Shown one piece after another: positions 27,147-60,993 of a DNA stretch of 64,000 bases. A model generated the notes under the pieces. The model was not told where the DNA came from, did not search any database, and was given only the letters and a program-made list of their open reading frames with translations. Source of the DNA: an uncultured Eubacteriales bacterium (lineage in GTDB: Bacteria; Bacillota; Clostridia; Oscillospirales; CAG-272); NCBI GenBank assembly GCA_934394585.1, contig CAKRQU010000002.1:51874-115873 (forward strand), read 5' to 3'. Within the stretch, counting starts at the first letter, position 1. The number at the start of each line of letters is the position of its first letter. The translations under genes were made by a program, and so were the position numbers.

Positions 27147-27611
27147 ATGGCAGAAAAAAACACAAAAATCATAGCGCAAAACAGAAAAGCGCGCCACGAT
27201 TATTTTGTGGAAGATACTTATGAAGCGGGAATCGCTCTTTTCGGCACGGAAGTGAAATCGCTTCGTGCCGGCACTGTAAATCTGAAAGATTCTTACTGCT
27301 ATATCAAGGACGGAGAAATTTTCTCCACGGGCGTGCATATCAGCCCTTATGAAAAAGGCAATATTTTCAATCGCGATCCTCTTCGCGAAAGAAAGCTTCT
27401 CATGCACAAGCGCGAAATACTGAAGCTGAGTATGCTGACAAATAAAGAAGGCTATACGCTCGTCCCGCTTTCGCTCTATTTTTCGGGAAAGAATGTAAAA
27501 ATGGAGTTGGGCGTATGTCGCGGCAAAAAGCTTTGGGACAAACGCGAAACAGAAGCAAAAAAGCAAGCCGCGAGAGAAATAGACCGCTACGAGAGAGAAA
27601 GCAGAAAATAA
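27147..27611 (+). CDS. smpB: SsrA-binding protein
   Basis: [20 protein letters not shown] and LLMHKREI motifs. Immediately upstream of the tmRNA. Confidence 0.9.
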
Positions 27612-28109: not shown

Positions 28110-28514
28110 TTAGCCGTTGTTTTCAGTGGTTCCGGAGGAAGCAGTTTTAGGTGTATAATCGTACTTACCTTCGGTAGTAGATTTTTTAAGCAAGCCATAC
28201 GTAGTATCTGCAGCAGCTGTGCCCTTTGTAGCTTTAGCATCAAACTGACCTTTTGTTACTGTGAAGTAGTAATCACCGGACTGAATTTTAATTGTAATGT
28301 TGGCGAGATCTTCAGCGTAAGACTTACCATCAGCATCGTTAGAAGCAAGCCAATCATAGTACATATTTCTTGCTTCCTGAAGAGCCTTGGACTCATTAGC
28401 CTTAGCAATTACATTAGAGAATGTAGGAATGAGTACTGCTGCGAGGATAGCGATCACAGCGATGACGATGACAAGCTCTACGATGGTAAAGCCGCGCTTT
28501 TTGTTGTTTTTCAT
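28110..28514 (-). CDS. prepilin-type (type IV pilin-like) protein, short form
   Basis: MKNNKKRG/FTIVELVIVIAVIAILAAVLIP has the class III signal: Gly-1, Phe+1, Glu+5 and a hydrophobic helix. 134 aa. AAGGAG RBS. Confidence 0.8.
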   Translation of the reverse strand: MKNNKKRGFTIVELVIVIAVIAILAAVLIPTFSNVIAKANESKALQEARNMYYDWLASNDADGKSYAEDLANITIKIQSGDYYFTVTKGQFDAKATKGTAAADTTYGLLKKSTTEGKYDYTPKTASSGTTENNG

Positions 28515-28940: not shown

Positions 28941-28972
28941 TATTTTTTGCAAAAATTTCTGATTGCATTACA

Positions 28973-31382: not shown

Positions 31383-31648
31383 AACTCAAAGAAGGACTCA
31401 TCATTACGGAATGCGGCGACGAATACATCGCCGTAGCCGCGGGAGAAGCGGGAAAAGCCTTTTCGGGCATGATAAAAATGAATAAAACCGCGGGCTTCAT
31501 AGCAAAGCAGCTTTCTCTTTGCGATACGGATATCTGCGATATCGTAAAAGCCGTGCTCGACAAATACGATGTGGATGAGAAAACCGCGCGCGAAAGCGTG
31601 GAAAAAGTGATAGCGGCTTTTAAAAAGCAGGGACTTATCGAAAAATGA
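31379..31648 (+). CDS. PqqD-family (RiPP recognition element-like) protein
   Basis: 89 aa. Overall pattern (G.EYI.V......F.....N.TA.FI...L....T...I...V...Y.VD......V...I......GLI) fits the PqqD family. ATGA overlap upstream. Confidence 0.55.
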   Translation: MKLKEGLIITECGDEYIAVAAGEAGKAFSGMIKMNKTAGFIAKQLSLCDTDICDIVKAVLDKYDVDEKTARESVEKVIAAFKKQGLIEK

Positions 31649-33186
31649 ATGAATTATACAATACAGAATCGGCGCTCGAAAAAGTCGGATTTGTAATTCA
31701 TACGATAAAAGGCACCAGCATGATGCCTCTGCTCGACCAGAATAAAGACGCCGTGCATCTCGTGCCGATAAAGGACGAGCCGAAAGTGAACGATATCGTG
31801 CTTTTACGCCGCGAAAACGGCGCGCTCGTGCTTCACCGCATAATAAAAATAAAAGACGGCATTTTTATCATACGCGGCGACAACTGCATAAGCAGTGAAA
31901 ACGTAGAGCGCAGGCAGATAATCGCGCGCGCCGATGCCGTATATAAAGACGGAAAATACATTCCATGCGACGATAAAAAGCTTTTGAAATATGCGAAAAA
32001 GCTGCCGCGCAGGTGGTTTTTCAGATATGTTCGCGCGCTTCCGGGCGCTGTATTCGCCCACATTTTCAAAAAAGAGAAAAAGTCCGCCAAAAGCGAAACG
32101 CGCACTGTGCCGGAGGAATTCCGCTTTCTCATAAAGCTGATTTCCGCGGCGATAGCGGGAAATAAAGTGACGGAATATCCGCAGGATATTTCTTTTCGCA
32201 GGCTTTTCGACATAGCGAAAGCGCAAAGCGTAGCCGCCACGGTTTTTTCCGCGCTGGATAAAGACAAAGTTCCCGCGGAAATCTATGCCGAATTTGAAAA
32301 GCATTATAATGCAAATCTGCGCAGAGAAATCCTTTTTGATGCGGAGCGCGAAGCCATCCTTTCCGAAATGGAAATGGCGGGCATAGCTTATCTGCCGCTG
32401 AAAGGCATTATTTTGAAAAATTTCTATCCGAAGCGCGGCATGCGTGAATTTTCGGACAATGATATACTATGCGACGGCGAAAAATCGCATGAAATCGCGC
32501 AGATAATGAAATCGCGCGGATTTGAAGCCGCCCTGTCGGACGGCGTCGCCGATTCGTTTCATAAAAAGCCGATATACAATTTCGAAATGCACCGCGAGCT
32601 TTTCGACCGCGATTTTCCGGCATACGCGGGCTTTGAAAATATTATGCAAAGAGCCGTGCGCGACAGTGGAAATTTCGGCTATCGCATGACGGATGAGGAT
32701 TTTTATGTTTATCAGGCGGCTCATTTTTATAAGCATTATTTTATGGGCGGCACGGGGATACGCTCCTTTGCGGATTTCATGCTGACGGAAAAATACGTCG
32801 CCGAAAAATCCGGTTTTGACAAGAAATATGCGGAAAATCTCATTTCAGAGTGTTCTCTTTCCGATTTTCTTTCAGCCGTAAAAAAAGCGACGCATTCGCT
32901 TTTTTCTCAGGCAGATGCGGATGATGAGTTGCTTTTGTATATTTATTCCAGCGGCACATACGGCTCTCTCGAAAACTATGTAAAAAACGGAGTGAAAGAA
33001 AAAGGCAGATTCCGCTATGCTCTCTCGCGGATATTTATGCCGTATCGCTTTATGAAGCTGCGCTTTCCGCTGCTTTCAAAGCTCCCATTTCTCCTGCCGT
33101 TTTTCTGGATAGCGAGATTTTTCATTTTCATATTCAGTGGAAAATACCGCAAAGCCACGCTGGACGCAATAAAGAAATCAAAATAA
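31645..33186 (+). CDS. fusion of S24/S26-type peptidase-like domain and NTP_transf_5-type nucleotidyltransferase
   Basis: N-terminus IKGTSMMPLL...LHRIIKI...IRGDN matches the Ser/Lys peptidase pattern. Central AYLPLKGIILKNFYPKRGMREFSDNDILC resembles the uncharacterised nucleotidyltransferase family. ATGA overlap upstream. Confidence 0.6.
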   Translation: MNELYNTESALEKVGFVIHTIKGTSMMPLLDQNKDAVHLVPIKDEPKVNDIVLLRRENGALVLHRIIKIKDGIFIIRGDNCISSENVERRQIIARADAVYKDGKYIPCDDKKLLKYAKKLPRRWFFRYVRALPGAVFAHIFKKEKKSAKSETRTVPEEFRFLIKLISAAIAGNKVTEYPQDISFRRLFDIAKAQSVAATVFSALDKDKVPAEIYAEFEKHYNANLRREILFDAEREAILSEMEMAGIAYLPLKGIILKNFYPKRGMREFSDNDILCDGEKSHEIAQIMKSRGFEAALSDGVADSFHKKPIYNFEMHRELFDRDFPAYAGFENIMQRAVRDSGNFGYRMTDEDFYVYQAAHFYKHYFMGGTGIRSFADFMLTEKYVAEKSGFDKKYAENLISECSLSDFLSAVKKATHSLFSQADADDELLLYIYSSGTYGSLENYVKNGVKEKGRFRYALSRIFMPYRFMKLRFPLLSKLPFLLPFFWIARFFIFIFSGKYRKATLDAIKKSK

Positions 33187-33191
33187 ATGTA

Positions 33192-33225
33192 AAAAGCAGG
33201 AAAACCTCTCGGTTTTCCTGCTTTT
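33192..33225. repeat. 34-bp direct repeat, left copy (itself a bidirectional terminator hairpin)
   Basis: AAAAGCAGGAAAACCTCTCGGTTTTCCTGCTTTT, identical to 34165-34198. Confidence 0.9.
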
Positions 33226-33315
33226 TGTTTGCGATGTGCTTTGTCCATGCGGGACAAAGGCGTACTTTTTTAAAAAAGTACCAAAAAGTTACTTTGTTCC
33301 ACGCGAGGGAACGAA

Positions 33316-34152
33316 GGTGTACTTTTGCGTGACCAAAAGTACCAAAAGTCAAAAAGAGGAAGGCATTCCTCTTTTCATCTCCTTCTGTCGCCTCGCGGCG
33401 ACCAGTGCGAACATACTGCCCAGACAGTCCGACCGTAGACTAAACCGGAAGTATGGTTCAAACCCCCGCACTTAACACGGGCTTTAGTCTGTTCAAGCCA
33501 GAACTAAACCTTCCCCCAACTCGATGTCCATCAAGCCATGCTTGCTCCGTCGGAGTTTAGTCTACAGTGGGAAGCATATCAAAAGCCATGGCGGGAGCCA
33601 ATTCACCCCGTCGAATCTGCTCGCTTTTTGCGGCGTACTTTGTTCGCACGCGCGGTATGGCTGATGATATGCGGAGAGATAGACAGAAGTTTTTTTGATT
33701 TGCTATATATAGCACATACTTGCCGCGCATTGCTTTCCGCGGCTAACTCGACGGGGTGCGAGGTAGTTTGCAAAGGAGGGCGAGGAGCCTTCCTTTGATG
33801 ACTTTTGCCGCGCTTTTTGTCAGTAAAAAGCGCGACCCCCGTCCTCCCCGTAGGGGATAAGAAACTTTTCCCGCTGACTCCGTCTCGGCGACGCCGTTCA
33901 GAGGTGGCTTCGCCACCCTGAACCCTCCTCTTTGTCAGTAAAAAGCGCGACCTCGTTTCTCGGTGGAGAAAGAAACTTGCACGGGCGACCGCAGTCGCCC
34001 GCCCCATCTTGGCAAAGAGAAACAATCCCTCACCCGACTTCGTCGGGAGCTCTGACCCTTTCTCGGCGAAGCCAAGCAACGTGCTTTGCACATTGCTTAA
34101 TTCCATTGCATAAGGAAATTTTTTGGTACTTTTGGTCACACAAAAGTACACC
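33316..34152. mobile_element. candidate non-autonomous (MITE-like) element bounded by 32-bp terminal inverted repeats
   Basis: GGTGTACTTTTGCGTGACCAAAAGTACCAAAA (33316-33347) matches the reverse complement of 34121-34152 at 31/32 positions. 837 bp with no credible ORF. Confidence 0.4.
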
Positions 34153-34164
34153 CTCCCCCTACAC

Positions 34165-34198
34165 AAAAGCAGGAAAACCTCTCGGTTTTCCTGCTTTT
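34165..34198. repeat. 34-bp direct repeat, right copy (bidirectional terminator hairpin)
   Basis: Identical to 33192-33225. Lies 4 nt from the stop of the epimerase gene. Confidence 0.9.
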
Positions 34199-34202
34199 AT
34201 TT

Positions 34203-35387
34203 TCAGTATTTTCTCCACACCATTTTATCCACTATGCCGGTATACGAACGGATTATCTTTACCACCTTGGTCGATACGTTTTCTTCCGTATAGTCGGGCA
34301 CGGGAATGCCGAGATCACCGCATTTATTCATTTCCACGGCGGTTTCCACTGCGCCGAGCAGATTTTTTTCATCTATCCCCGCGAGGATAAAGCAACCTTT
34401 TTCCATCGCCTCGGGGCGCTCGGTGGATGTTCTTATGCACACGGCAGGAAAAGCCTTTCCTATCGAGGTAAAAAACGAACTTTCTTCCGGCAATGTGCCG
34501 CTGTCGGAAACCACGGCAAAAGCATTCATCTGTAAATTATTGTAATCATGAAAACCGAGCGGCTCATGACGCGTCACGCGCTTATCGAGCACAAATCCGC
34601 TTTCATCAAGCCGTTTTTTGGAGCGCGGATGACAGGAATAAAGCACAGGCATATCATATTTTTTTGCAAGAGCGTTTATCGCGGAAAAAAGACTGGTGAA
34701 ATTCTTTTCCGTATCTATATTTTCTTCTCTGTGCGCCGAAAGGAGAATATAATTTTTCTTTTTCAGCCCGAGCCGCGATAAAATATCGCTTTTTTCTATA
34801 CTTTCCAGATTTGAATGGAGCACCTCCGCCATGGGAGAACCTATTACAAATGTGCGTTCCTTCGGCATGCCGCATTCCGCAAGATATCTGCGGGCATATT
34901 CGCTGTATGCCATATTCACATCGGAAATGATATCCACTATGCGCCTGTTTGTTTCCTCGGGCAGACATTCATCTTTGCATCTGTTCCCCGCTTCTATATG
35001 AAAAACAGGTATGTGCAGGCGCTTTGCCGCTATGGCGGAAAGGCAGGAATTTGTATCGCCGAGTATCAGCATGGCATCGGGTTTTACCGCCGACATCAGC
35101 TTATATGAGCAATTTATGATATTTCCCACCGTGGCGCCGAGATCATCGCCCACGGCATTCATATATACATCGGGAAGAGCCAGATCGAGATCGCGGAAAA
35201 ATATCCCGTTCAGATTGTAATCATAATTCTGCCCCGTATGTGCCAGAAGCGTATCGAAATATTTTTCGCATTTTTTTATCACTGCGCAAAGACGTATTAT
35301 CTCCGGACGCGTGCCGACTATAATAAGCAGCTTCAGCCTGCCGTCGTTTTTGAAACTTATATCCGAATAATCCGTTTTCATATCCAT
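34203..35387 (-). CDS. fnlC: UDP-N-acetylglucosamine 2-epimerase (non-hydrolysing), FnlC/CapG-like
   Basis: 394 aa, WecB-family pattern (GTRPEIIRL, LGDTNS, HIEAGNR, SDSG). Same operon as the CapE/CapF-like genes. Confidence 0.8.
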   Translation of the reverse strand: MDMKTDYSDISFKNDGRLKLLIIVGTRPEIIRLCAVIKKCEKYFDTLLAHTGQNYDYNLNGIFFRDLDLALPDVYMNAVGDDLGATVGNIINCSYKLMSAVKPDAMLILGDTNSCLSAIAAKRLHIPVFHIEAGNRCKDECLPEETNRRIVDIISDVNMAYSEYARRYLAECGMPKERTFVIGSPMAEVLHSNLESIEKSDILSRLGLKKKNYILLSAHREENIDTEKNFTSLFSAINALAKKYDMPVLYSCHPRSKKRLDESGFVLDKRVTRHEPLGFHDYNNLQMNAFAVVSDSGTLPEESSFFTSIGKAFPAVCIRTSTERPEAMEKGCFILAGIDEKNLLGAVETAVEMNKCGDLGIPVPDYTEENVSTKVVKIIRSYTGIVDKMVWRKY

Positions 35388-38341: not shown

Positions 38342-39390
38342 CTGTCGCCTTCCGCCTTTGCCAGCTCTTCGCGTATATACGAAAGCGAAAGCAGCTTTTC
38401 TTTTACTTCGTCCGCGGAAAGAATGCGCGTATTATTGGAATTGAATTCGGTGAGCATATTTCGCTTTCTGTCGCCCTCGCTGAAATATTTGTCGTAATTG
38501 AGCCCGCGATTGTCCGCCGGAACACGGTAAAAATCGCCCATGTCCACCGCTTTTGCACATTCCTCGTTTGTCAGCAGGGTTTCATACATTTTTTCGCCGT
38601 GGCGGATGCCTATCACCTTTATTTCTTCCTCTTTGCCGCCGAAAACGGCGCAAACCGCCTTTGCCTGCGTCATTATAGTGCAGGCGGGAGCTTTCTGTAT
38701 CAGCAGATCGCCGTTTTCGCCGTGCTCGAAAGCGAAAATCACCAGATCCACCGCTTCATCGAGCGACATGATAAACCGCGTCATTTCAGGCTCGGTAACG
38801 GTTATGGGCAGTCCGTTTTTTATCTGATCTATCCACAGCGGGATTACGGAACCGCGACTGCACATCACGTTTCCGTAGCGGGTGCAGCAGATTTTTGTTT
38901 TTCCCGAATTTCTCGATCTCGCCACGGCTATTTTTTCCTCTATGGCTTTTGTTATGCCCATGGCGTTTATAGGATATGCTGCTTTATCCGTGGAAAGACA
39001 TATCACGCTTTCCACACCCGCTTCGATGGCTGCGGTAATGACATTGTCCGTACCGATGACATTTGTGCGCACAGCCTCCATCGGGAAAAATTCGCAGCTG
39101 GGCACCTGCTTCAGCGCCGCCGCATGAAATACGAGATTCACGCCGTGCATGGCACTTCTCACCGATTGCAGATCGCGCACATCGCCTATATAAAATTTTA
39201 TTTTGTCCGCCGCCTCGGGCATTTTCGCCTGAAATTCATGGCGCATATCATCCTGCTTTTTTTCATCGCGCGAAAAAATGCGTATTTCACCTATATCCGT
39301 TTTCAGAAAACGGTTCAAAACAGCGTTTCCGAAAGAGCCTGTCCCTCCCGTAATCATCAGAGTTTTACCTGCAAAAAGACTTTTTTTCAT
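38338..39390 (-). CDS. fnlA: UDP-GlcNAc 4,6-dehydratase/5-epimerase, FnlA/CapE-like
   Basis: LMITGGTGSFGNAVLNRFL...IRIFSRDEKKQDDMR is the characteristic CapE/FnlA N-terminus. Confidence 0.8.
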   Translation of the reverse strand: MKKSLFAGKTLMITGGTGSFGNAVLNRFLKTDIGEIRIFSRDEKKQDDMRHEFQAKMPEAADKIKFYIGDVRDLQSVRSAMHGVNLVFHAAALKQVPSCEFFPMEAVRTNVIGTDNVITAAIEAGVESVICLSTDKAAYPINAMGITKAIEEKIAVARSRNSGKTKICCTRYGNVMCSRGSVIPLWIDQIKNGLPITVTEPEMTRFIMSLDEAVDLVIFAFEHGENGDLLIQKAPACTIMTQAKAVCAVFGGKEEEIKVIGIRHGEKMYETLLTNEECAKAVDMGDFYRVPADNRGLNYDKYFSEGDRKRNMLTEFNSNNTRILSADEVKEKLLSLSYIREELAKAEGDR

Positions 39391-40691
39391 GTTTTGTTCT
39401 CCTTTTGTTTTATCATTCGGATAATGGTTTTCGGATTAAGCGCGCGATATATCAGCTTTATCACCGGTCTTATCGGTTTCATGATAAAGCAGAGCGCAAA
39501 ATTTGTGAAAAACTGCGTAGCCACGGTGGCTATGGCGGCGCCTTCCGCTCCGAGCAGAGGAATCAGGGCAAAATTTCCCGCTACATTGAAAAGCGCACCG
39601 GAAAGATTTATTATCCACAGATATTTATGCTTTCCCTGCGCGAGCATCCATACATTCCGCACGGAACCCATATAAGAAAAAGCGGAATACCATGTTATTA
39701 TCCGCAGTATCGGCACGGAAGCGGCATAATCGGAGCCGTAAAGCAAAGCTGTGACGGGGCGCGCGAGCAATGTGAGAAAAACGCTCTGAAATAGCCCCAT
39801 ATAGATTATTATCGAATAAAGCAAAGAAACATTTTTTTCGAAAGCCTCTTCGCTTTGCTTTTTGCTTTCGAATATGACGGGGCGGAGCGAATCTATCACC
39901 GCGGCAAAAACAAAGGATGTCACGCCCGCGCAGGTGAGCGCCGCGCTGTAAAAGCCCGTCGCTTCATCGCCTGTCATGGTTTTTATCATTATTTTGTCTG
40001 TCTGGGAAAAAATCGTCACCATCATTCCCGATATTATGTAATACCGGCTTTTTGAAAAAAGCTCTTTCCCGAGCGAAAAGGAAAAAGAAAGCTTTTGCGT
40101 GCCTATTTTCCCGTATATGAAAAGAAGCGTCGCTGATATGATGAAAAGGTCGAAAGCGGATGTTATCGCAAACCAGCACACGCCTTTTTTCGTGACGAGC
40201 AGGAATATTTTATATGCAGCCACTATGATATAAGCGCAAAGTGAAGTCACCGACGTATATTTTGAAAGAAGCTTTGCCTGATACCAATACTGTATCATTT
40301 CCGTGGTATGGAAAACAAGCGATATGCTGTACAGCGCACAAACGATAAAAGTGTCCTTTTCCGATGCGTTCGCTATGGAAACAAAAGCAAGGCATCCGCC
40401 GATGCAAAGAAAGCTCGTCACGGCGCTCATCACGAGCGACGTTCCGAGTGTTTTGCCCTCGCGCTCCGGATGCGATACTATTTCCTCCACCAGCACATTT
40501 CGGAAACCGAGCTGTGCTATCGGAACGGCAAAAGCCACCACGGATGCGGCATAGTTTATGAGCCCGTAGTCTGAAGGACCGAGATATCGCGCCGATATCA
40601 TGCCGATGACAAGGCTGATGAGCGACTGCGCTATCCTGCATGCTATTATCCATGACGCATTTTTTACTACTTTATTTTTGAAAATGCTCAT
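39387..40691 (-). CDS. wzx: Wzx-type polysaccharide flippase (MOP superfamily)
   Basis: 434 aa with about 12-14 TM helices. Lies within the glycan operon. Confidence 0.75.
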   Translation of the reverse strand: MSIFKNKVVKNASWIIACRIAQSLISLVIGMISARYLGPSDYGLINYAASVVAFAVPIAQLGFRNVLVEEIVSHPEREGKTLGTSLVMSAVTSFLCIGGCLAFVSIANASEKDTFIVCALYSISLVFHTTEMIQYWYQAKLLSKYTSVTSLCAYIIVAAYKIFLLVTKKGVCWFAITSAFDLFIISATLLFIYGKIGTQKLSFSFSLGKELFSKSRYYIISGMMVTIFSQTDKIMIKTMTGDEATGFYSAALTCAGVTSFVFAAVIDSLRPVIFESKKQSEEAFEKNVSLLYSIIIYMGLFQSVFLTLLARPVTALLYGSDYAASVPILRIITWYSAFSYMGSVRNVWMLAQGKHKYLWIINLSGALFNVAGNFALIPLLGAEGAAIATVATQFFTNFALCFIMKPIRPVIKLIYRALNPKTIIRMIKQKENKT

Positions 40692-40808: not shown

Positions 40809-42080
40809 TTATTCCAGTATAAGCTTGCCGTCCGCGCCGAACGTGTATGTTCCCGCGGGGAGGAGTTTATTTGTATATGTGATATGCTTTGTGCAGTTCT
40901 TCACCGCTGTGAGGGTAGCACCGGAAATGTAATAATAGCTTCCGTCCGTATCCTTTACGAGACCTGCGTAAGTTGGTACATCATCCACATAGTAGCGGAT
41001 TTCACCGTCGGCGTCTTTTACTATGCCCTGCTTCATCACCATCTTGCCGTCCGCGCCGAACGTATATGTTCCTGCGGGCAGGAGTCTGTTTGTATAAGTG
41101 ATATACTTCGAGCAGTTCTTCACCGCCGTGAGAGTAGCGCCGGAAATGTAATAGTAGTTTCCGTCCGTATCCTTTACGAGACCTGCGTAAGTGGGTACAT
41201 CGTCCACATAGTAGCGGATTTCACCGTCGGCGTCTTTTACTATGCCCTGTTTCATCACCATCTTGCCGTCCGCGCCGAACGTGTATGTTCCCGCGGGCAG
41301 GAGTCTGTTTGTATAAGTGATATACTTCGAGCAGTTCTTCACCGCCGTGAGAGTAGCGCCGGAAATGTAATAGTAGTTTCCGTCCGTATCCTTTACGAGA
41401 CCTGCGTAAGTGGGTACATCGTCCACATAGTAGCGGATTTCACCGTCGGCGTCTTTTACTATGCCCTGTTTCATCACCATCTTGCCGTCCGCGCCGAACG
41501 TGTATGTTCCCGCGGGCAGGAGTCTGTTTGTATAAGTGATATACTTCGAGCAGTTCTTCACCGCCGTGAGAGTAGCGCCGGAAATGTAATAGTAGTTTCC
41601 GTCCGTATCCTTTACGAGACCTGCGTAAGTGGGTACATCGTCCACATAGTAGCGGATTTCACCGTCGGCGTCTTTTACTATGCCCTGTTTCATCACCATC
41701 TTGCCGTCCGCGCCGAACGTGTATGTTCCCGCGGGCAGGAGTCTGTTTGTATAAGTGATATACTTCGAGCAGTTCTTCACCGCCGTGAGAGTAGCGCCGG
41801 AAATGTAATAGTAGCTGCCGTCCGTATCCTTTACCAGACCCGCGTAAGTGGGTACATCGTCCACATAGTAGCGGACTTCGCCATCGGCGTCTTTTACTAT
41901 GCCCTGTTTCATCACCATTCTGCCGTCCGCGCCGAACGTGTATGTTCCTGCGGGGAGAAGCTTATTTGTATATGTTATATGCTTTGTGCAGTTCTTTACG
42001 GCTCTGAAATCGTTTCCGCTGATATAGAGATATCTGCCGTCGGCATCTTTTACCAGACCCGCATAAACAGCCATGCCGTC
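40809..42080. repeat. 219-bp in-frame tandem repeats (5 full units plus a degenerate one)
   Basis: Units phase at 41261, 41480 and 41699. 41261-41479 and 41480-41698 are identical by eye, and neighbouring units differ at a few positions. Confidence 0.9.
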
Positions 42081-45000
42081 GTTTGCATAATAGATATCGC
42101 CGTTTGCCATGGTTACCACGCCGGTAGCCGTGGTTTTGCCTATCAGCACGCCGTCGGCTGTAAACTCATATATACCGGGGGCTTTTCCCGCGGATTCATA
42201 GAGAGCCGCAGTGCCTTCAGTGCGATAGCCTGCCGTATCGAAATTATATGTTTTGCCGTCTATCACTTTCCAAGCGGCATATCCGGCAAAGGACGCTCTG
42301 TAATAATCGGGACCGTAGTAATATCTGTATCCGGTGGCGTTATGATACCACATACCGGAAACGAGTTTGCCGTTTGATTCAAATGTGAATGTCACTCTGC
42401 CGTTGTTGAAAGATTCGACATTTGTCTTTGTATGCGGATCGAAATAATACCATGCGTCGTCTATCTGCTTCCAGCCTTCGGAAAGAACGCCTATCTGCGA
42501 ATAGCTGTATTTGCCGTCTGTCTCGATAAGACCCGTGTATTTTATTCTGCCCGCGCAGACGCCGTCGGTACCGAAATCGTAATAGAAACCTTCTATTTTC
42601 TGAATTCCGTTGAGCTTTTTGCCGTTCAGATAGTAGGAATCATTTACCCATCCGTCGGAAACGGCAACGCCGTTCACATAGGTTTTGCCGTCTGTCCAGA
42701 GACCGCTGAAGATATCTCCGCATTCGCCGCATCTGAGAATACCGTCTGTGATTGCATAGCTGTGTCCTTTTGCCTCGAGCGTAGTGCCCCAATCCACCAC
42801 GGAATTGCATACGTCGCAGAATGTTCTGCCTGTATATCCGCTTTCCGTGCAGGTAGCGGCTTTATCTTCCACAGCATGTGCGGAATGTATGTGACCGCCG
42901 TCCCATGCATTGAAATAAGCCTTGCCTTCGGCAGTGGATATCATATCCTTTGCCATTTTGTACATTTCGGTATCCACCTGCGGACCTTCGCCCGAGAATG
43001 TATCGGTTGTTCCGTCCGTAAATACCACTATGCCGCGGTCTATTTCCATGCTGATATCGACGGGCCAGAATTCTTTCATGCTTTTGAACTGAGCATAAGT
43101 GAAAGCTTCGCTTCCCTTCTTTGTTCCGCTCGTGTAGGTATAGCCTGTTTTCAGCTCCCATGTACGTATCGGGAGAGAAGCGAGAACGGCTTCGCCCGTG
43201 CTGTCGTTTTCGCCTGTGCGCGTGATTGTTATCGTGGCTATATTTTCATCGTCCTGTATGGAGTAGGAAGCGGTGAAGCCTTTTGCCGTCGTAAGATGGG
43301 CGAGCTCCCATCTGCTCATATTGTTGAGGTCGATATCTACCGTAACGCTCTGCACCTTTTCTATATCAGTGGCGACCACATCGACATACCATACGGAGCC
43401 GAGTTTTATTTTATCCAGAGAAGGATCGTGAGCCACTACCTTTACAGTGGATTTTCCGGAGCCGGCATTTACATTTACCGTGCGTATCACAGAAGCATAA
43501 TTGCCCTGATTGTCGCATACGGAAAATTTGATATGGTGCAATCCGTCCGCCAGCACAACATCGGAAACAGACATCACGCCGTCCTTGAATGTGCAGGGGA
43601 ATTCCACGCCGTCTATATATGCCTTTGCCGTAGCGGCATTGATACCCGTGAAGTTAGTTTTGCTTGTATTGTCGGCAACTTTCACGCCGAAGCTGAGAGT
43701 ATTGTCGCTGACAGTCTGACCGTTCAGCGAAGCGGCATCGGACATGGAAGGCGTAGCATAAGTCACGTCGCCGAATACGGGCGCTTCTCTGTCGTCCACC
43801 GCATCGGAATAGTCCACCGTGATATCGTCCACATACATCACGTATCTGCCGTTATAGGATTTGTGCTGATTGTAATAGTAACCGTAGCTTGCGCCGTCGC
43901 GGTCGGAAATGTAAAACTGTACGATATAGCCCTTATGCAGATAAAGTCCCGCATAAGCATTGAGATCTATCGAAAGATAGTGCCAGCCGGGCTCGCTATA
44001 CTGATTTACAAATCCCGTAGTGGAAGCGACACCGTCCGCGAGCGTATTTGTGATCAGGGAATCCCCCTTGACGTATTCGCCGGCATCGTTTTTGACGAGA
44101 GGAAATACTGTGTAGCGAATCCAAGTGGAAACATCCTCGTCGGAAATATAAATCCACATGCCGAGTCTTGTGGCGTTTTCAAAGGTTTTCTCGTCTCCGT
44201 TGTAAAGCAGAGCTGTCATCATATAGCCGGATTCCAGCGAATTGCCGTAATTTATATCAAGCGCCATGGCACCGTTTCCGCTGTGAACTTTGCCGGTCGC
44301 CGATGTCACATGATATACTCTTCCTTCGGGAAGCGTATAATTGTACGGTTCATAGCTGAGTACAAAATCGCTGACATTTCCGTCCTCGAAATCGAATATC
44401 ACTTCGCTGCCTTTGCCGAGAGATATCTGCGATACCGCGGTAACATCCGTGCCGATAAATTTTGCCGTGATCGTGCTGGATGTGCCGCTGTCGGCAGCGG
44501 TGAAAGTAAGTCCGTTTACCGTACCGACAGTATTGTCGGAAAGCGTGAATGCAATATCGGAAGCTTTGAATTTGACTGTATTGAGCCCGTAAGTGGCTGT
44601 GAGCGAGAGAGCAACCGTTTTTCCGAAAGGAACAGTCATTTTTGCGCTGTTGAAAGCGATGCTCTGCGGAATAACGCAATGAACCGTGAGCGAGCCGACT
44701 TCTTTTCCGTCGTACATGGCGGTGACGGTAACATCGCCTGCCGCAGTCGCCGTGAGGACACCGTTTTCATAAGTGCCGTTTGTCGTCACATAAGAAATAT
44801 CATCGGGTATGGCAGCCGATGTGCCCGCAGGGGAAACGCCTGCCACCGTCACATTAACGGATGTGCCGGGAGTGATGTATTCTTCCTCCGCACCCATGGT
44901 GACATGGTCGAAAGAATTTGAGGGAACCGCCGTGGAAGCGATGATGAGACCCGAGGAAATAGAGCGCTCGGAACCGTCGGAGGGACGGTTTATAACTTCC

Positions 45001-45875
45001 ACTTCATCGGAACCTTCCGGACGGGAAGCAAATGTTGTGGAGCCGCCGCCGTCGAGATTTATCGCCGCGACGCAGCCTGCCTCGAGCATTATCTGCGCCA
45101 GCTCATGCATGGAACCGCCGCAGGAAAAAGGCTCCTGACGTCCGTCGAGGACCATCATCACTACCTTGCCCTCGGCTGTTATACCCACGCATGTGCGGGA
45201 ATGTCTGTCTGTATTGTAAGAACCGGATGCACCTGCCGTTACGTCCTTGCCGTCGCGGACGAGCCACTGAGAGCCTGCCGCAGCCTGCCATATCGTGCTG
45301 TTGCCGTTTTCATCCACATAATTGCCGATGTTTTTGGCATAGTCGATAACTGCGGTTTTGCCGTCCTTCAGTATGGCAAAGAAATTGTCGTAGCTTACCG
45401 TGCCGAATGATACGCCGTCGATATATGTAATGCCGATGGGTTGTCCCGTCTGCATATTATAGAAGGAGGCATTCACGCCCGCCACTACATTATAATATTC
45501 GCTGATAAAATTCGGATCGTCGGGATTGCTGTACTTTTTATTTGCGTAAGCAATCTGCGCTGTCAGCTTGTCCATACCCATGGTGCCGTTTTCGTGCTGC
45601 TTGAGATAAGATGTCTGGACGAAAACATCGTCGCGGGTGATGTCCGCGGTGGCAACATAGTAAACCATCTGCTTGCCGTCGGAGGCATAAGCATAATTGA
45701 TATACTGTTCCACACCGGGAGCGAGCTGAGACGGTGTACTTTTAAATACATCGTGTGTTTCCGATTCAAAATCTCTGTTGTATGCCGCAAATAAGCCGAG
45801 AGGCAGTAATCCCGCAAGCATGGCAACACAGAGAATGAGAGCCGGAAGCTTTTTCAGTGAATTTCTGAATTTCAT
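40809..45875 (-). CDS. large secreted surface protein: phosphodiester glycosidase (NAGPA-like) domain, Ig-like domains, cell-wall-binding-type repeats and 73-aa tandem repeats
   Basis: Start moved to ATG 45875 (AAGGAGAAG RBS; signal peptide MKFRNSLKKLPALILCVAMLAGLLPLG). DRHSRTCVGI...VLDGRQ...AINLDGGGSTTF matches the phosphodiester glycosidase domain. YYFD/YYY aromatic repeats toward the C-terminus. Confidence 0.75.
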   Translation of the reverse strand: MKFRNSLKKLPALILCVAMLAGLLPLGLFAAYNRDFESETHDVFKSTPSQLAPGVEQYINYAYASDGKQMVYYVATADITRDDVFVQTSYLKQHENGTMGMDKLTAQIAYANKKYSNPDDPNFISEYYNVVAGVNASFYNMQTGQPIGITYIDGVSFGTVSYDNFFAILKDGKTAVIDYAKNIGNYVDENGNSTIWQAAAGSQWLVRDGKDVTAGASGSYNTDRHSRTCVGITAEGKVVMMVLDGRQEPFSCGGSMHELAQIMLEAGCVAAINLDGGGSTTFASRPEGSDEVEVINRPSDGSERSISSGLIIASTAVPSNSFDHVTMGAEEEYITPGTSVNVTVAGVSPAGTSAAIPDDISYVTTNGTYENGVLTATAAGDVTVTAMYDGKEVGSLTVHCVIPQSIAFNSAKMTVPFGKTVALSLTATYGLNTVKFKASDIAFTLSDNTVGTVNGLTFTAADSGTSSTITAKFIGTDVTAVSQISLGKGSEVIFDFEDGNVSDFVLSYEPYNYTLPEGRVYHVTSATGKVHSGNGAMALDINYGNSLESGYMMTALLYNGDEKTFENATRLGMWIYISDEDVSTWIRYTVFPLVKNDAGEYVKGDSLITNTLADGVASTTGFVNQYSEPGWHYLSIDLNAYAGLYLHKGYIVQFYISDRDGASYGYYYNQHKSYNGRYVMYVDDITVDYSDAVDDREAPVFGDVTYATPSMSDAASLNGQTVSDNTLSFGVKVADNTSKTNFTGINAATAKAYIDGVEFPCTFKDGVMSVSDVVLADGLHHIKFSVCDNQGNYASVIRTVNVNAGSGKSTVKVVAHDPSLDKIKLGSVWYVDVVATDIEKVQSVTVDIDLNNMSRWELAHLTTAKGFTASYSIQDDENIATITITRTGENDSTGEAVLASLPIRTWELKTGYTYTSGTKKGSEAFTYAQFKSMKEFWPVDISMEIDRGIVVFTDGTTDTFSGEGPQVDTEMYKMAKDMISTAEGKAYFNAWDGGHIHSAHAVEDKAATCTESGYTGRTFCDVCNSVVDWGTTLEAKGHSYAITDGILRCGECGDIFSGLWTDGKTYVNGVAVSDGWVNDSYYLNGKKLNGIQKIEGFYYDFGTDGVCAGRIKYTGLIETDGKYSYSQIGVLSEGWKQIDDAWYYFDPHTKTNVESFNNGRVTFTFESNGKLVSGMWYHNATGYRYYYGPDYYRASFAGYAAWKVIDGKTYNFDTAGYRTEGTAALYESAGKAPGIYEFTADGVLIGKTTATGVVTMANGDIYYANDGMAVYAGLVKDADGRYLYISGNDFRAVKNCTKHITYTNKLLPAGTYTFGADGRMVMKQGIVKDADGEVRYYVDDVPTYAGLVKDTDGSYYYISGATLTAVKNCSKYITYTNRLLPAGTYTFGADGKMVMKQGIVKDADGEIRYYVDDVPTYAGLVKDTDGNYYYISGATLTAVKNCSKYITYTNRLLPAGTYTFGADGKMVMKQGIVKDADGEIRYYVDDVPTYAGLVKDTDGNYYYISGATLTAVKNCSKYITYTNRLLPAGTYTFGADGKMVMKQGIVKDADGEIRYYVDDVPTYAGLVKDTDGNYYYISGATLTAVKNCSKYITYTNRLLPAGTYTFGADGKMVMKQGIVKDADGEIRYYVDDVPTYAGLVKDTDGSYYYISGATLTAVKNCTKHITYTNKLLPAGTYTFGADGKLILE

Positions 45876-45946
45876 TTTCTTCTCCTTGTTTTTTTGGAAT
45901 TTTAAATTTTTATATAAACGCCGCGATGGGCGGTTATACCGTTTTT

Positions 45947-46789
45947 TTACTTTTTGTATTTTTCTTTCGCTCCTGAATGCTTTGTATAATCCGTATACGG
46001 GCGCGAAAGATCGCATACGGTGTAGTAATGGTGACCCTTTTGGGCTTCTATCGGAATATCGGCGCGCCAGTTTCCGTATTTCTGCGAGAGATATTCGTCA
46101 TATCTCTCGGGTATGCGAACAGTAAGCCCCTCAAAGTGCGCTTCCGCGCCTTTTCCGTACTGCTCACGTGGGGCGTATTCCAGCTTTCCCTGCCAGTTTC
46201 CGTGATTGCACCATACTGCGCTTTTGTCGCTGGGATATTTTGATATCTCTGCTTCGAGGCGACGGGCAAATTCCGCGCTTTTCCCGCGAAAGCCGATCAG
46301 CCTTTGCACCCGTGCGAGAAGTGCCGCTTTTTTGGAATACCGCACGGAAAAGCAACACAGAGTTTTCATCGCGAATTTTCTTTTTTCGCGCTCTGTGCGC
46401 GCTTTTTCCTTTTCGATTTCCGGATAGCCGTCCAGCGGAAATACATCTATGTAAACGCCGTGGCAGATATCCAGCTCCGCCATGCTTTTTTCTATATACG
46501 TGGTGCGCGTATCGCGTATTTTGGAAAATATCATCGGAAAGGCGGGGTCTGTCCTGTAATTCTGCAAAAAGCAGTACCCGGGCAGAAACTCCTTTGCCCT
46601 GCGGCAGAATATTTCGTAATCGGCGCGCGGCAGAGCCACGTCTATATCATCGTCCCACGGGATAAACCCGCCGTATTTTGCCGCCCCGAGCGCGGAACCG
46701 CATACGAGAAAATACGTCAGCCCCAGCTTTTCGCATACATTTATGAAATTTTCCAAGAGACAAAGCTCGGTGCGCTGCAAATCATTCAT
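45947..46789 (-). CDS. licD: LicD-family phosphotransferase
   Basis: LVCGSALGAAKYGGFIPWDDDIDVALPRADY is the LicD signature. ATG at 46789 chosen. Confidence 0.7.
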   Translation of the reverse strand: MNDLQRTELCLLENFINVCEKLGLTYFLVCGSALGAAKYGGFIPWDDDIDVALPRADYEIFCRRAKEFLPGYCFLQNYRTDPAFPMIFSKIRDTRTTYIEKSMAELDICHGVYIDVFPLDGYPEIEKEKARTEREKRKFAMKTLCCFSVRYSKKAALLARVQRLIGFRGKSAEFARRLEAEISKYPSDKSAVWCNHGNWQGKLEYAPREQYGKGAEAHFEGLTVRIPERYDEYLSQKYGNWRADIPIEAQKGHHYYTVCDLSRPYTDYTKHSGAKEKYKK

Positions 46790-59100: not shown

Positions 59101-60993
59101 TCAGGCTTTATATTTAGCGTCTACATTACCGTTAAATGTACCGCCGGTAATAAATCCTGTGCAGTTCTCGCTGTAAACAGCGTTGGAGCCGCCGTTGATA
59201 GTTGTAAATGTACCGCCGGAAACAGCCAGTTTCACTTTTGCAATAGAGTCTTCATCGTTATTCTGGGGATTGCTCTGGTGAAGTGCGGTGTAGCCCTTGA
59301 TTGTGCCGCCTGTAACAGTAAGCTCTGTGGGTAGCTTCGTAGTGTGCTGTGCCACTGCAATGCCGGCGCCTATTGTAGTTGCGCCATTGCCATTGGATTC
59401 GACTTCTGTCGGAACACCGTTACCTGTAATTGTGCCGCCGGTAACATTGAGCTTGCCTGCGCGAAGCTCGATACCTGTGTGACCGCCTGTGATCGTGCCG
59501 CTAGTGGTATACTCGGCATAGCCTGCGCCGTATATACCGTGACCTGTGCCGGTAAGAACAGCGGATTCATAAATATTGACTTTAATTGCGGGATTTACAC
59601 TAATATTCGCTCCGTTCACATAAAGACCAGCTCCGACACTACCGCTGGCATCATTTACGCCAGTCAACGTGCCGTAAACATTTATTACAAGAGCATAATC
59701 GTTGCCACTGTATTGACTTTTGGGGTTAACCAATATGCCTGACCACCCCTTGAGTGTCACATCCTTGTCAATGGTCACAACAGCAGGATTTGAAGCCTTA
59801 TGATCTACCACAATCGGAGAATAATTGGAAACCGCTTCCTGCATCGTGCCCTTGCCTGTAACTGTCAGTTCGCCCATATACAATCTAATGAATTTATTTT
59901 CATTGAATGTAATAGTGTGACCGTTCAAATCCAAGGTGAGTTTCAAGCTTGAATTGTTCATCTTCGCACCGTCAGATGTGAAATCTCTCAATACAGTAAT
60001 GGTATCACCGCTTTTCGCACCATATACAGCAGAGGACAGTGAGAAATAATTCTTGCCGTTTACGCTTGCAACAGGAGCATCAAAAGTTATATCAAAAGTT
60101 GAAAAACTTGCTGTATTGAAAGTTACCTTACCGCTGCTCTGGTAGGAACTGCTGATCAGCGAGCCCTCGTGGTAAACCTTCACATTTGACAGGTCTTCGC
60201 CAACACCAATTTCGACCGTAAAAGTTGTGCCCGCATTAGCAGTAACAACGTTTCCGTCCTTATCGAGCAGCTTGATATCATAAGAATAGTACACTTCATT
60301 GTTGCCGACTTTTACCACACTGCTTGATTTTGGAGTAAGTTTGAATGTATATTCACCATCAGCCAGAGATCCTGCGGGAGCAGTCAAAGCAGCTTCCGCG
60401 CGATTTACCGTGAATGTCGTTGCTTTCGTAGAATCAACAGTCTTGGTCACATTTACATTAAACCCTGTTCCTGCGCCGCCTGTAAAGCCTGCTGCTATAT
60501 CATAATCTGCAAAAACAGCCATTTCTTCCCGCTTGAAACCGAGCGTAGCTACAGTGCCGCTTTCTCCGTTGAGCGTGTCGCTCTTACGCCAGTCAGCCAT
60601 TTCTCCTGTAAAGTTTGTAAGCGCACTGGCTTTAACGAGATTTTCGCATATATTTCTTGCTTTATCTGCAAAAGTAGCGCCATCTCCGAGCTGTACAGGG
60701 TTGTTTATATAAGCAACTACTTTGCTCTCGCTCGCATCATATCCGTGTATATATGCTTCGTCGCCTTTTTTCGTCACGATTACGAGGTCTGCCGCGTCGT
60801 CGCCGCCGCTGAGTATGTTGGCGAGCATTTCCGTCACGAGGTTTTTCGCATCGGAAAGAGCCGCAGCTTCGTTTGCTTTTTTCACGAGGTTTGCATAAGT
60901 CGGGATCAGCACAGCAGCAAGTATGGCGATGACTGCGATGACGATGACTAATTCAACAATCGTGAAACCGCGCTTTTGATTGTTTCTTTTCAT
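59101..60993 (-). CDS. prepilin-type N-terminal domain fused to a large beta-helix-like adhesin domain
   Basis: MKRNNQKRG/FTIVELVIVIAVIAILAAVLIP class III signal. About 580 further residues rich in G/T/N with reiterated TGG.I.G / VTGGTI segments, suggesting a parallel beta-helix. Confidence 0.75.
   Translation of the reverse strand: MKRNNQKRGFTIVELVIVIAVIAILAAVLIPTYANLVKKANEAAALSDAKNLVTEMLANILSGGDDAADLVIVTKKGDEAYIHGYDASESKVVAYINNPVQLGDGATFADKARNICENLVKASALTNFTGEMADWRKSDTLNGESGTVATLGFKREEMAVFADYDIAAGFTGGAGTGFNVNVTKTVDSTKATTFTVNRAEAALTAPAGSLADGEYTFKLTPKSSSVVKVGNNEVYYSYDIKLLDKDGNVVTANAGTTFTVEIGVGEDLSNVKVYHEGSLISSSYQSSGKVTFNTASFSTFDITFDAPVASVNGKNYFSLSSAVYGAKSGDTITVLRDFTSDGAKMNNSSLKLTLDLNGHTITFNENKFIRLYMGELTVTGKGTMQEAVSNYSPIVVDHKASNPAVVTIDKDVTLKGWSGILVNPKSQYSGNDYALVINVYGTLTGVNDASGSVGAGLYVNGANISVNPAIKVNIYESAVLTGTGHGIYGAGYAEYTTSGTITGGHTGIELRAGKLNVTGGTITGNGVPTEVESNGNGATTIGAGIAVAQHTTKLPTELTVTGGTIKGYTALHQSNPQNNDEDSIAKVKLAVSGGTFTTINGGSNAVYSENCTGFITGGTFNGNVDAKYKA

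Follow-up and report, generated by a model that had tools for sequence, protein, structure and literature searches.

A precise insertion between duplicated terminators

What is the DNA that separates two convergent genes when both of them end at the same terminator? In the window (the whole 64-kb stretch of DNA analysed here), an NTP_transf_5 gene on the plus strand (31645-33186) and a UDP-GlcNAc 2-epimerase gene on the minus strand (34203-35387) face each other, with stop codons 5 nt and 4 nt, respectively, from two copies of one sequence (33192-33225 and 34165-34198). The preliminary description took this sequence to be a bidirectional terminator repeated perfectly in direct orientation, and our analysis agrees on both counts. 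The 34-nt sequence AAAAGCAGGAAAACCTCTCGGTTTTCCTGCTTTT occurs exactly twice in the window with 0 mismatches (0 of 100 shuffles gave matches), and each copy is a terminator-like hairpin with a 15-16-bp stem, a 4-nt loop, an A-tract and a T-tract, hence its bidirectional look. The duplicated 34 bp is derived from the target, and its limits are exactly the two feet of the terminator palindrome.

The 939 bp between the two copies (33226-34164) are absent from eight other strains, recovered from eight other samples. These strains have one terminator and 43 bp between the genes, in flanks 97.8-100% identical to those of the window; a comparison proposed earlier, the search for empty sites with a single terminator, was thus answered in eight strains. 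In the nearest empty allele (L002/L005) the flanks are 100% aligned (2226 and 1836 bp) and the 939-bp block is missing. The seven further empty strains have flanks 97.8-98.4% identical, and in six of the seven the terminator is a variant (AAAGCC); the window has the AAAACC form at both ends of the insert, as do the nearest empty strains. Two other contigs (L003 and L006) end within the element. The 939-bp insertion is therefore derived and precise.

Recombination between the 34-bp direct repeats would yield exactly the empty sequence, so the occupied state might instead be ancestral and the empty alleles deletions. However, none of the eight other strains has the insert; seven of them show 1.6-2.2% flank divergence and six of these the other terminator variant, so that this scenario would need repeated independent precise deletions; it also leaves the origin of the duplication unexplained. 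We find it scarcely credible. Perfect 34-bp direct repeats around the insert, with one copy in the empty allele, are also what the remnant of an integrative element (CIME-like) would show after site-specific recombination, the repeats being attL and attR, and 34 bp is a plausible length for an attachment-site core. Yet no recombinase lies in or adjoining the insert, the limits of the repeat are those of the palindrome of a host terminator, and other copies of the inserted DNA (see below) are scattered over many unrelated sites. None of the other family copies and loci compared contains the 34-bp sequence, indicating that the element does not carry it. A CIME-like origin is thus very improbable.

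Modular architecture of the insert

The preliminary description treated the 939 bp as one element with 32-bp terminal inverted repeats. It is instead a mosaic, made of a 519-bp basic unit (33319-33837) together with partial units and mini-modules. The inverted repeats do exist and are slightly longer than described (35 nt, 94% complementary, 33313-33347 and 34121-34155), and each arm contains the palindrome GTACTTTT-N8-AAAAGTAC (4 matches vs 0.02 expected). They are not, however, the termini of the inserted DNA, but lie inside it by 87 nt and 9 nt, and the outermost ends (TGTTTGCGATG... and ...CCCCCTACAC) are not inverted repeats. The part of the insert homologous to the repeat family described below is 33284-34155; for the segments 33226-33283 and 34156-34164 we found no homologue among the 243 loci compared.

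The left junction (33226-33318) is an array of a small hairpin (33239-33259), a short-loop GTAC hairpin (33262-33281) followed by CAAAAAG, and another small hairpin (33292-33316). The two tandem units of small hairpin plus GTAC palindrome noted earlier are accordingly present (33239-33259 with 33262-33281, and 33292-33316 with 33319-33342). The basic unit, all of whose parts we assign to the minus strand, has its first end at 33319-33375, where hairpin A' (GTAC type, 33319-33342), an invariant 9-mer (33343-33351, CAAAAGTCA on the plus strand) and hairpin B' (33352-33375) follow each other; hairpin B' and the UUUUUGACUUUUG after it look like an intrinsic terminator on the minus strand. For this end, the family model shows positions 470-534 as an inverted repeat of positions 19-70. 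The adjoining conserved 3' module (33376-33440) contains the hairpin GTCGCCTCGCGGCGAC and was delimited by nhmmer matches, found in many loci at family-model positions ~405-560, and by homology to three loci (L020, L014 and L095). Within this module, the GTGCGAACA box (33405-33413) is complementary to TGTTCGCAC, which lies at 33641-33649. The central domain (33428-33572), closed by an 18-nt pairing of 33428-33445 with 33555-33572, is variable across the family; the coverage profile of the insert shows it in only about 8 close copies. In the conserved 5' module, or P1 domain (33605-33757), a 13-bp long-range stem formed by 33605-33617 and 33745-33757 surrounds inner stems as well as the near-invariant blocks ACC(A/G)CGCGTGCGAACA and GAGCAGATTCG. 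Hairpin B (33771-33797), TGACTTTTG (33799-33807) and hairpin A (GCGC type, 33809-33834) form the other end of the basic unit (33771-33834).

Beyond the basic unit lies a second GCGC-type hairpin A in direct repeat (33870-33949, minus strand), interrupted just past its TGAC loop by a ~58-nt mini-module (~33875-33931, GAGGAGGGTTCAGGGTGGCGAAGCCACCTCTGAACGGCGTCGCCGAGACGGAGT on the minus strand). The same interruption recurs in about 10 of 100 aligned copies and in loci L121 and L122. A small hairpin module, GGGCGACCGCAGTCGCCC (33981-34002), is found also at 29113-29131 and in L121-L123. Another mini-module (34022-34104), which in gut copies sits within the loop of hairpin B, has a second match in the window at 61143-61220 (76.5% identity), upstream of a pilin-like gene. 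The right arm of the inverted repeat (34121-34155), with its GTAC hairpin (34126-34149), completes the mosaic. The window also holds a solo family end on the plus strand (29060-29135), composed of a GTAC hairpin, CAAAAAAAG and two small hairpins; it is located upstream of a pilin-like gene and has the module order of the left end of the L123 copy.

The insert had been described as lacking any credible open reading frame (ORF). This holds in that we treat it as non-coding, although a 187-codon ORF does exist (minus strand, 34166-33603, TTG start; 167 aa from an ATG) and is predicted by gene callers. Neither the 187/167-aa ORF nor two other ORFs matched Pfam, R, K, S and T are abundant in the translation, its 54 database "homologues" are of very unequal lengths (16-100% coverage), and 1-nt indels fall inside the ORF among aligned copies; for these reasons we consider it non-coding. 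It served merely as a handle for retrieving other copies.

A dispersed repeat family

A search for other copies, also proposed earlier, turned up several in the metagenome from which the window comes, and a great many in gut metagenomes. The source metagenome has at least 5 further copies, at unrelated loci (83-90% identity), and at least 120 family stretches were found in metagenome contigs, mostly labelled human gut. Many contigs have 2-14 family matches, and many matches lie at contig ends. The terminal hairpin was detected in metagenome-assembled genomes labelled Ruminococcus, Acutalibacteraceae, Oscillibacter, Christensenellaceae and Lachnospiraceae. Of 149 copies, 107 consist of the 5' module only. 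With respect to neighbouring genes, 31 copies are in convergent, 33 in tandem and 20 in divergent contexts, and show no orientation bias. The family is thus multicopy, nested and dispersed over all kinds of intergenic space. A cis-regulatory leader or 3'-UTR element was rejected on the basis of this unbiased orientation and context, and a CRISPR-like array because the stretches between hairpins are conserved units, not variable spacers. A phage or plasmid origin was discarded as well: blastn searches with the insert gave no match in the phage and plasmid collections, and pattern scans of viral contigs gave nothing, or chance matches without hairpin context.

Four conserved strings of the family were found in no paper's full text, and the strings looked for in the first 200 of 408 supplementary files of a catalogue of structured RNAs from the human microbiome (PMC8040213) were absent there too. 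We take the family to be a previously undescribed modular repeat of uncultured gut Eubacteriales/Oscillospirales.

We found neither a transposase nor a recombinase next to the copies examined. No cluster of recurrent ORFs occurs near copies in more than 6 of the 243 loci, and Pfam searches assigned the ORFs adjoining hairpins in two loci (L016 and L070) to housekeeping genes. Pairs of end hairpins 1-4 kb apart, as in a parent insertion sequence, were not seen among the loci compared, and no parent insertion sequence was found in the 243 loci, the viral contigs, or the phage and plasmid records. Nor did other copies examined have long flanking direct repeats of the target type.

Terminal hairpins and long-range pairing

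At the ends of the units is a hairpin whose structure is constrained; its loop is conserved, and a 9-mer tail follows it. The boundary reads as the covarying hairpin G(TA/CG)CTTTT-N-NNTGAC-N'-AAAAG(TA/CG)C, then the invariant CAAAAGTCA, then a second hairpin. The loci compared contain 213 distinct copies of hairpin A, 24-28 nt long, in mosaics and arrays. The loop-closing pair is Watson-Crick in 209 of them (CG 98, GC 93, TA 16, AT 2), and the base of the stem is GTAC/GTAC in 150 and GCGC/GCGC in 58, with only 5 mixed. The loop is NNTGAC in about 85% of the copies, and the tail CAAAAGTCA is present in 166.

These ends raise the possibility of a palindrome element of the IS200/IS605 or REP/RAYT type, moved as single-stranded DNA by a HUH/Y1 transposase that recognises a hairpin and a short motif. 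In the hairpin it is the structure that is conserved, not the sequence, and both the loop and the 9-nt single-strand tail are fixed; the hairpins are subterminal (36 and 15 nt from the insert ends) and the true ends have no terminal inverted repeats; and the strongly intergenic, terminator-adjacent habit is like that of REP/BIME. In IS200/IS605 elements, however, the end hairpins are direct on one strand, whereas here they are inverted, the loops GCGTGACC and GGTCACAC being reverse complements. To our knowledge IS200/IS605 insertion makes no target duplication, and here there is one of 34 bp. Moreover, the comparison of recurrent ORFs and the scans of neighbouring genes showed neither Y1_Tnp nor TnpB near any copy. 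We consider this type of element unlikely.

Inside the units lies a domain whose long-range pairing is compensated. Both long-range pairings proposed earlier are present, the first in extended form (33428-33445 with 33555-33572, 18 nt, 89%) and the second as given (33604-33614 with 33748-33758, 11 nt, 100%). As to covariation, one of them covaries: CACCCCGTCGA/TCGACGGGGTG is replaced by GCGTGCACGA/TCGTGCACGC in the other subfamily. Between subfamilies the P1 stem is fully compensated, with 6 of its 13 pairs changed on both sides, and 98.1% of the cells are paired, compared with 13-56% when the partners are slid. In the central stem, a five-copy alignment shows that, on the minus strand, most changes in paralogues amount to G·U wobbles.

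A structured RNA or a mobile repeat

The pairing suggests another reading, in which the unit is primarily the gene of a multicopy structured non-coding RNA, transcribed from the minus strand, with its start near hairpin A (33834) and its end at the terminator formed by hairpin B' (33352), and mobility is secondary. Candidates would be a regulatory RNA, or a guide or scaffold RNA for an enzyme encoded elsewhere. In favour of an RNA gene are the compensated P1 stem and one inner stem with a compensated pair, single-stranded blocks that are invariant over 100 distinct copies, the hairpin and U-run that end the minus-strand unit, and the wobbles just described. The minus-strand consensus fold is also slightly better (-32.6 vs -30.0 kcal/mol), and the minus-strand folding z-score is -4.5; but the plus strand folds equally well (z = -5.0), and neither the z-scores nor the consensus folds of forward and reverse alignments decided the strand. 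By eye, no sigma-70-like promoter is kept in the family consensus; a single promoter-like site lies in 33000-34400, no more than in shuffles; and where the window group has an AT-rich box, the gut group has a different sequence. The compensated stem represents one split between two clades, and the many copies cut down to the 5' module occur in any orientation and context. The element is also dispensable in eight strains.

No Rfam family was matched. The large RNA families considered gave no match, neither those against which the preliminary description had advised a check (ROOL, GOLLD, OLE, raiA, group I and II introns) nor HEARO. At the gathering score, only a tmRNA and an HDV-like ribozyme were found in the whole window, both elsewhere; at E<=10, the insert region gave only chance terminator-like matches; and eight related loci gave 0 matches. 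There is no tRNA or tmRNA in the insert region. A group II intron had been considered since many units end in GTGCGCTGACGG after a hairpin, and was rejected when no intron domains were found by Rfam in the eight related loci. What supports the earlier suggestion of a structured RNA is a conserved folded core with a covarying stem, which may be RNA or folded DNA. Overall, we regard an RNA gene as possible, though not likely.

Instead, the 939 bp are probably a non-coding, non-autonomous modular repeat, similar to MITE, BOX and BIME elements, whose insertion would have followed a staggered cleavage at the feet of the terminator palindrome; IS1630 provides the precedent. The MITE-like insertion into a terminator first put forward for this locus is supported by the empty sites in eight strains and by the multicopy family. 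The mobile-repeat mechanism could work as follows. The terminal hairpin, through its NNTGAC loop and CAAAAGTCA, would be recognised by an enzyme encoded in trans. Opposite strands would be cut at the palindrome ends, either by this enzyme or by a host activity directed at the extruded palindrome, and filling in of the 34-nt stagger would leave an intact terminator for each convergent gene. Since each gene would keep its own terminator, we propose that the insertion is nearly neutral. The folded core may serve the propagation of the element itself, as a single-stranded DNA recognition structure or as RNA, rather than the neighbouring genes. Nested insertions into hairpin loops, together with recombination among modules, would then produce the arrays and mosaics.

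Of all copies examined, this one alone has a clean direct repeat at its flanks, so the staggered-cut step rests on a single event. Other presence/absence differences (L213/L232 vs L168, and L237 vs L193) are bounded by family modules and could reflect unequal recombination rather than transposition. The conserved internal blocks and the compensated stem would fit a functional RNA gene as well.

A bolder version of the mobile-repeat reading, which we hold to be rather doubtful, is that the family represents a new class of non-autonomous elements, in which the folded core (the P1 domain with hairpin A and CAAAAGTCA) acts, as RNA or single-stranded DNA, as the partner of a trans-encoded, hairpin-recognising enzyme that cuts palindromes and terminators at both feet. 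If true, this would be a structure-targeted, possibly nucleic-acid-guided mode of transposition, so far undescribed, and would explain the nested insertions into hairpin loops. The duplication of a whole intrinsic terminator, with one copy kept by each of two convergent genes, shows how the tightest intergenic space may be colonised at little cost. The combination of a constrained end hairpin, a compensated stem and no nearby transposase makes the family a target in the search for a hairpin-recognising enzyme or a new RNA. In practical terms, the family is abundant in uncultured Clostridia of the human gut; gene callers produce spurious "hypothetical proteins" by the dozens on its copies, and metagenome assemblies break there.

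Comparison with known systems

Several large structured RNAs are linked to mobile DNA, namely HEARO/IS605 omega RNA, ROOL, GOLLD and IS110 bridge RNA. In common with them, the family has a folded non-coding domain, conserved and several hundred nucleotides long, that accompanies mobile DNA. It differs in that its RNA status is putative, it has no Rfam match, and no TnpB, IscB or IS110 recombinase is adjacent.

A classical MITE begins and ends with inverted repeats, is flanked by a short target duplication of constant length, and can be traced to a parent insertion sequence. Like MITEs (e.g. Correia elements), the family is non-autonomous, non-coding, multicopy and strain-polymorphic, and folds into long hairpins. 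Inverted-repeat ends are found only on the 519-bp basic unit, however, and the ends of the 939-bp insert, which is long for a MITE, are not complementary. In addition, the 34-bp duplication occurs at one copy, with none comparable at others, and no recognisable parent insertion sequence was found among the 243 loci searched.

In REP/BIME systems with a RAYT, a Y1 transposase gene is flanked by the palindromes in the same genome; we found no RAYT-type gene in the window neighbourhood or the loci scanned. The family does have the REP/BIME feature of imperfect palindromes of 20-40 nt that are highly repeated, intergenic and mosaic-forming (hairpin A, 24-28 nt). Pneumococcal BOX/RUP/SPRITE and enterobacterial BIME/REP and ERIC elements are non-coding, intergenic, multicopy, modular (boxA-boxB(n)-boxC; REP mosaics) and hairpin-rich; some are terminator-like, and they cluster and insert into each other (PMC10969869; PMC3049150). 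The family described here is likewise non-coding, intergenic, multicopy, modular, hairpin-rich and nested. Its units, in contrast, are much larger, with conserved domains of 220 nt and 520 nt and long-range pairing, and have a distinctive end (a hairpin with NNTGAC loop, CAAAAGTCA, a second hairpin); no sequence similarity is expected.

IS1630 is an autonomous element, with a transposase gene and 27-bp terminal inverted repeats. The insert reported here has no gene and no inverted repeats at its true ends, and its duplication is seen at one copy only; an IS30-family transposase and its terminal inverted repeats are absent from the insert, which has no coding capacity. In "insertion with long target duplication", DNA lacking its own mobility genes lies between direct repeats of >30 bp, of which the empty genome has a single copy (Furuta, Abe and Kobayashi 2010, PMC2853133). 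Our insert also lacks mobility genes and lies between >30-bp repeats that are single in the empty allele, although those inserts are single-copy restriction-modification units of several kb, and here we have a multicopy non-coding repeat whose target is a perfect palindrome. In Mycoplasma fermentans, IS1630 (IS30 family) duplicates a whole terminator-like inverted repeat of its target; the duplication, unusually long at 16-26 bp, takes its length from the palindrome (PMC3317919; PMC2853133). By the pattern of this one insertion event our case is analogous, the duplication being the whole palindromic terminator, here of 34 bp.

Insertion into a terminator between convergent genes

The 34-nt sequence AAAAGCAGGAAAACCTCTCGGTTTTCCTGCTTTT occurs exactly twice in the 64-kb window, at 33192-33225 and 34165-34198, as the preliminary description had it, and a 34-nt match was found in 0 of 100 shuffled sequences. 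Both copies form a terminator-like hairpin with an A-tract 5' and a T-tract 3'. The stop codon of a PF14907 nucleotidyltransferase gene (31645..33186, plus strand) lies 5 nt from the left copy, and that of a UDP-GlcNAc 2-epimerase gene (34203..35387, minus strand) 4 nt from the right copy. The inverted repeat described within the 939-bp insert as 32 bp long is present, but spans 35 nt with 94% complementarity (33313-33347 and 34121-34155); the two long-range pairings claimed for the core were both found in the sequence. The insert had been said to have no credible ORF. For the only long ORF in it (minus strand, 34166..33603), Pfam gave no match and the translation is of low complexity. The database "homologues" of this ORF cover 16-100% of it and vary widely in length, and 1-nt indels fall inside it between paralogous copies. 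These observations rule it out as a gene, and on these sequence grounds we treated it as non-coding.

Exact look-up of both flanking proteins located the same locus in other samples. The version in Logan run ERR7746349 matches the window at 100% identity over 2226 and 1836 bp of flank, and has one terminator and 43 bp between the genes. Seven further strains from seven other samples (flanks 97.8-98.4% identical over 2770 bp) are all empty, six of them with a variant terminator (AAAGCC instead of AAAACC). The occupied allele was found in the window's contig, ERZ27286994 and ERZ28613653; in the last, both contigs of the locus (L003 and L006) stop within the element at its 5' module boundary (window 33606 and 33658), as would be expected if the assembly graph branches at a multicopy module. 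Since eight other strains are empty with a single terminator, the empty state is ancestral, and the insertion real and derived. The gain amounts to exactly 973 bp, made up of the 939 bp and one copy of the terminator. No other family copy carries the duplicated 34 bp, which derive from the target and not from the element; they span the terminator palindrome from foot to foot.

A large family of modular repeats

The spurious ORF, used as protein query, returned 54 "proteins". In their contigs the core (window ~33284-33844) recurs within the same sample with 83-90% identity, downstream of HPr and CarD genes, a UvrD/PcrA helicase gene and spoIIID. The core pattern GCGTGCGAACA-N10-30-GAGCARATTCG matched at least 120 stretches in the metagenome collection; among the matches listed, most of those with a label came from human gut, and many shared a contig with others or lay at a contig end. 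There was no match to the pattern in viral contigs, nor to the insert in phage and plasmid collections. With a profile HMM from five copies, nhmmer detected 346 pieces, spread over 128 loci. MAGs labelled Ruminococcus, Acutalibacteraceae, Oscillibacter, Christensenellaceae and Lachnospiraceae also contain the terminal hairpin motif; the results of that search include chance matches in AT-rich phyla. With paralogues in its own sample and these metagenome stretches, the insert, first described as MITE-like, is a member of a large repeat family.

On the window minus strand, a unit begins with a less conserved lead-in (...CATAAAG-AACTTTTCTTTTATC in the gut group, one of the subfamilies), followed by hairpin A, G(TA/CG)CTTTT-N-[NNTGAC]-N'-AAAAG(TA/CG)C, the 9-mer CAAAAGTCA (in 166/213 copies), hairpin B (at least five different versions, each internally complementary) and the P1 domain, ~155 nt closed by a 13-bp stem and containing the near-invariant blocks ACC(A/G)CGCGTGCGAACA and GAGCAGATTCG. 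In most gut copies a short hairpin and GTGCGCTGACGG come next; the alternative is a central domain, variable across the family, with a "3' module" whose last parts are hairpin B', then TGACTTTTG, then hairpin A', an inverted repeat of the unit start.

The basic unit in the window spans 33319-33837 (519 bp), and the rest of the insert consists of further family pieces. On one side these are a second GCGC hairpin (33870-33949) split by a 58-nt mini-module directly after the TGAC loop, a module with a small hairpin (33981-34002), a mini-module (34022-34104) with another occurrence upstream of a pilin-like gene (61143-61220), and hairpin A for the third time (34126-34149). The opposite side (33226-33318) has two small hairpins and a short-loop GTAC hairpin. 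Since the same mini-modules occupy hairpin A or B loops in ~10% of gut copies, these loops seem to serve repeatedly as insertion points. Most copies are truncated (107 of 149 5' modules have no recognisable 3' module within 2.5 kb), and tandem arrays exist with a period of 390-640 nt. Complete, truncated and 220-nt "short" units are arrayed head to tail at two loci (L014 1-300, L240 2400-3700), and one 14-kb locus has up to 14 family hits. A solo family end (window 29060-29135; GTAC hairpin, CAAAAAAAG and two small hairpins) sits in the long non-coding region upstream of a small pilin-like gene. In another Clostridia MAG, an 853-bp element (L103 6755-7607) has ~85-nt inverted repeats ending in the family-type GTACTTTT..AAAAGTAC and CAAAAG hairpin; its interior, with a small ORF, is unrelated, so the end hairpin is common to otherwise different elements.

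Structural conservation

Hairpin A is constrained as a hairpin and not as a sequence: among 213 distinct copies, its loop-closing pair is Watson-Crick (CG, GC, TA or AT) in 209 and its stem base GTAC/GTAC or GCGC/GCGC in 208. One of the two long-range pairings, that of P1, also covaries. Between the window group (n=5) and the gut group (n=95), 6 of the 13 P1 stem pairs are altered on both sides, a compensation that is essentially one split between two clades, and one pair of an inner stem is likewise altered. Overall, 98.1% of cells are paired, against 13-56% with partners slid by 1-3 columns, and the number of pairs with double changes is ten, compared with 4.7 ± 1.3 for shuffled data.

Folding is much more stable than in shuffled sequences on either strand (z = -4.5 and -5.0), and the consensus fold, at -32.6 and -30.0 kcal/mol for the two strands, shows barely any strand preference. 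The fold may matter in RNA or, as a cruciform or in single strands, in DNA. No conserved sigma-70 promoter was seen in the family consensus. G·U wobbles in the paralogues' central stem and a terminator-like 3' end hint weakly at the minus strand. Neither the repeat family nor the insert, which had been suggested to carry a structured RNA, matched any Rfam family.

Genomic context and mode of spread

Repeat blocks lie in 31 convergent, 33 tandem and 20 divergent intergenic regions, with no link found between their orientation and the neighbouring genes. No ORF cluster recurs next to copies in more than 6 of 243 loci, and the neighbour genes scanned are housekeeping genes. The unbiased context and orientation argue against a cis-regulatory role, and the lack of a recurrent cluster, with the housekeeping neighbours, against an element-borne transposase.

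Comparison of alleles shows that the insertion was precise and recent, and that its duplication stems from the target and ends at the feet of a perfect palindrome. A simple cut-and-paste origin is at odds with the true insert ends, which are not inverted repeats, and with the lack of a target-type direct repeat at any other family copy. The target would have been cut on opposite strands at both palindrome ends, either by a symmetric enzyme acting directly on duplex DNA or after cruciform extrusion, and the 34-nt stagger would then have been filled in. Palindrome-duplicating insertion has a precedent in IS1630 of Mycoplasma fermentans (IS30 family), whose 16-26-bp duplications comprise an entire terminator-like inverted repeat of the target (1999 work as cited in PMC3317919; also PMC2853133). 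Target duplications of more than 30 bp without a mobility gene at the insertion are on record (PMC2853133).

Gut strains differ by the presence or absence of a single unit at two more places, with flanks 97-99% identical (L213 4005-4477 and L232 5702-6047 vs L168 693-720; L237 6912-7361 vs L193 2535-2580). These differences are bounded by diverged ~45-bp copies of a family module, or replace a 44-bp stretch, and may be recombinational. The family probably spreads by rare insertion together with module-level recombination and duplication.

Other features of the window

At 40711-40777 on the minus strand, Rfam model RF02682 identifies an HDV-like ribozyme of the F. prausnitzii type with 55.7 bits, which exceeds the gathering score. 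It is flanked by the stop of an ORF of 1735 aa with a NAGPA domain (40809..46016, minus) and by a Polysacc_synt flippase ORF (39387..40691, minus). A 219-bp (73-aa) unit is repeated in tandem about 5.7 times (40824-42066, 88-95% identity) in the C-terminal part of the 1735-aa ORF; these are therefore coding repeats. Other tandem repeats (62332-63602, period ~222 or 312 bp, 81-89% identity) lie within a 600-aa ORF (61731..63533, minus) with only weak Pfam hits. Two N_methyl (type IV pilin-like) genes, 28110..28514 and 59101..60993 (both minus), are each preceded at a distance of a few hundred nt by a long (GTCT)n run, of ~15 copies at ~28847-28906 and ~20 at ~61376-61454; these runs are candidate phase-variation sites, and the regions upstream of the two genes are homologous (28727-28957 vs 61259-61506, 78%). 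A tmRNA gene (27615-27985, plus strand, 186.5 bits, tag peptide ANNNKVAMAA) is directly 3' of smpB (27147..27611); going by the name of the SmpB protein cluster, the organism of the window belongs to the uncultured Eubacteriales.

Comparison with known systems

The conserved strings of the family were found neither in the full text of papers nor in a structured-RNA catalogue, of whose 408 supplementary files the first 200 were covered. The family differs from IS200/IS605 elements in hairpin orientation and in the presence of a duplication, which IS200/IS605 insertion is not known to make. It is closest in behaviour to modular intergenic repeats (BOX/RUP/SPRITE, and enterobacterial BIME/REP) and to MITEs. 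It departs from the definition of the latter in its ends and in having no short duplication of fixed length, and no parent insertion sequence was found among 243 loci or in viral contigs, phage records or plasmid records. The pneumococcal BOX, RUP and SPRITE repeats cluster and insert into one another (PMC10969869). We class the family as abundant, rich in structure and hitherto undescribed; its copy in the window is unusual in the duplication of a whole terminator.
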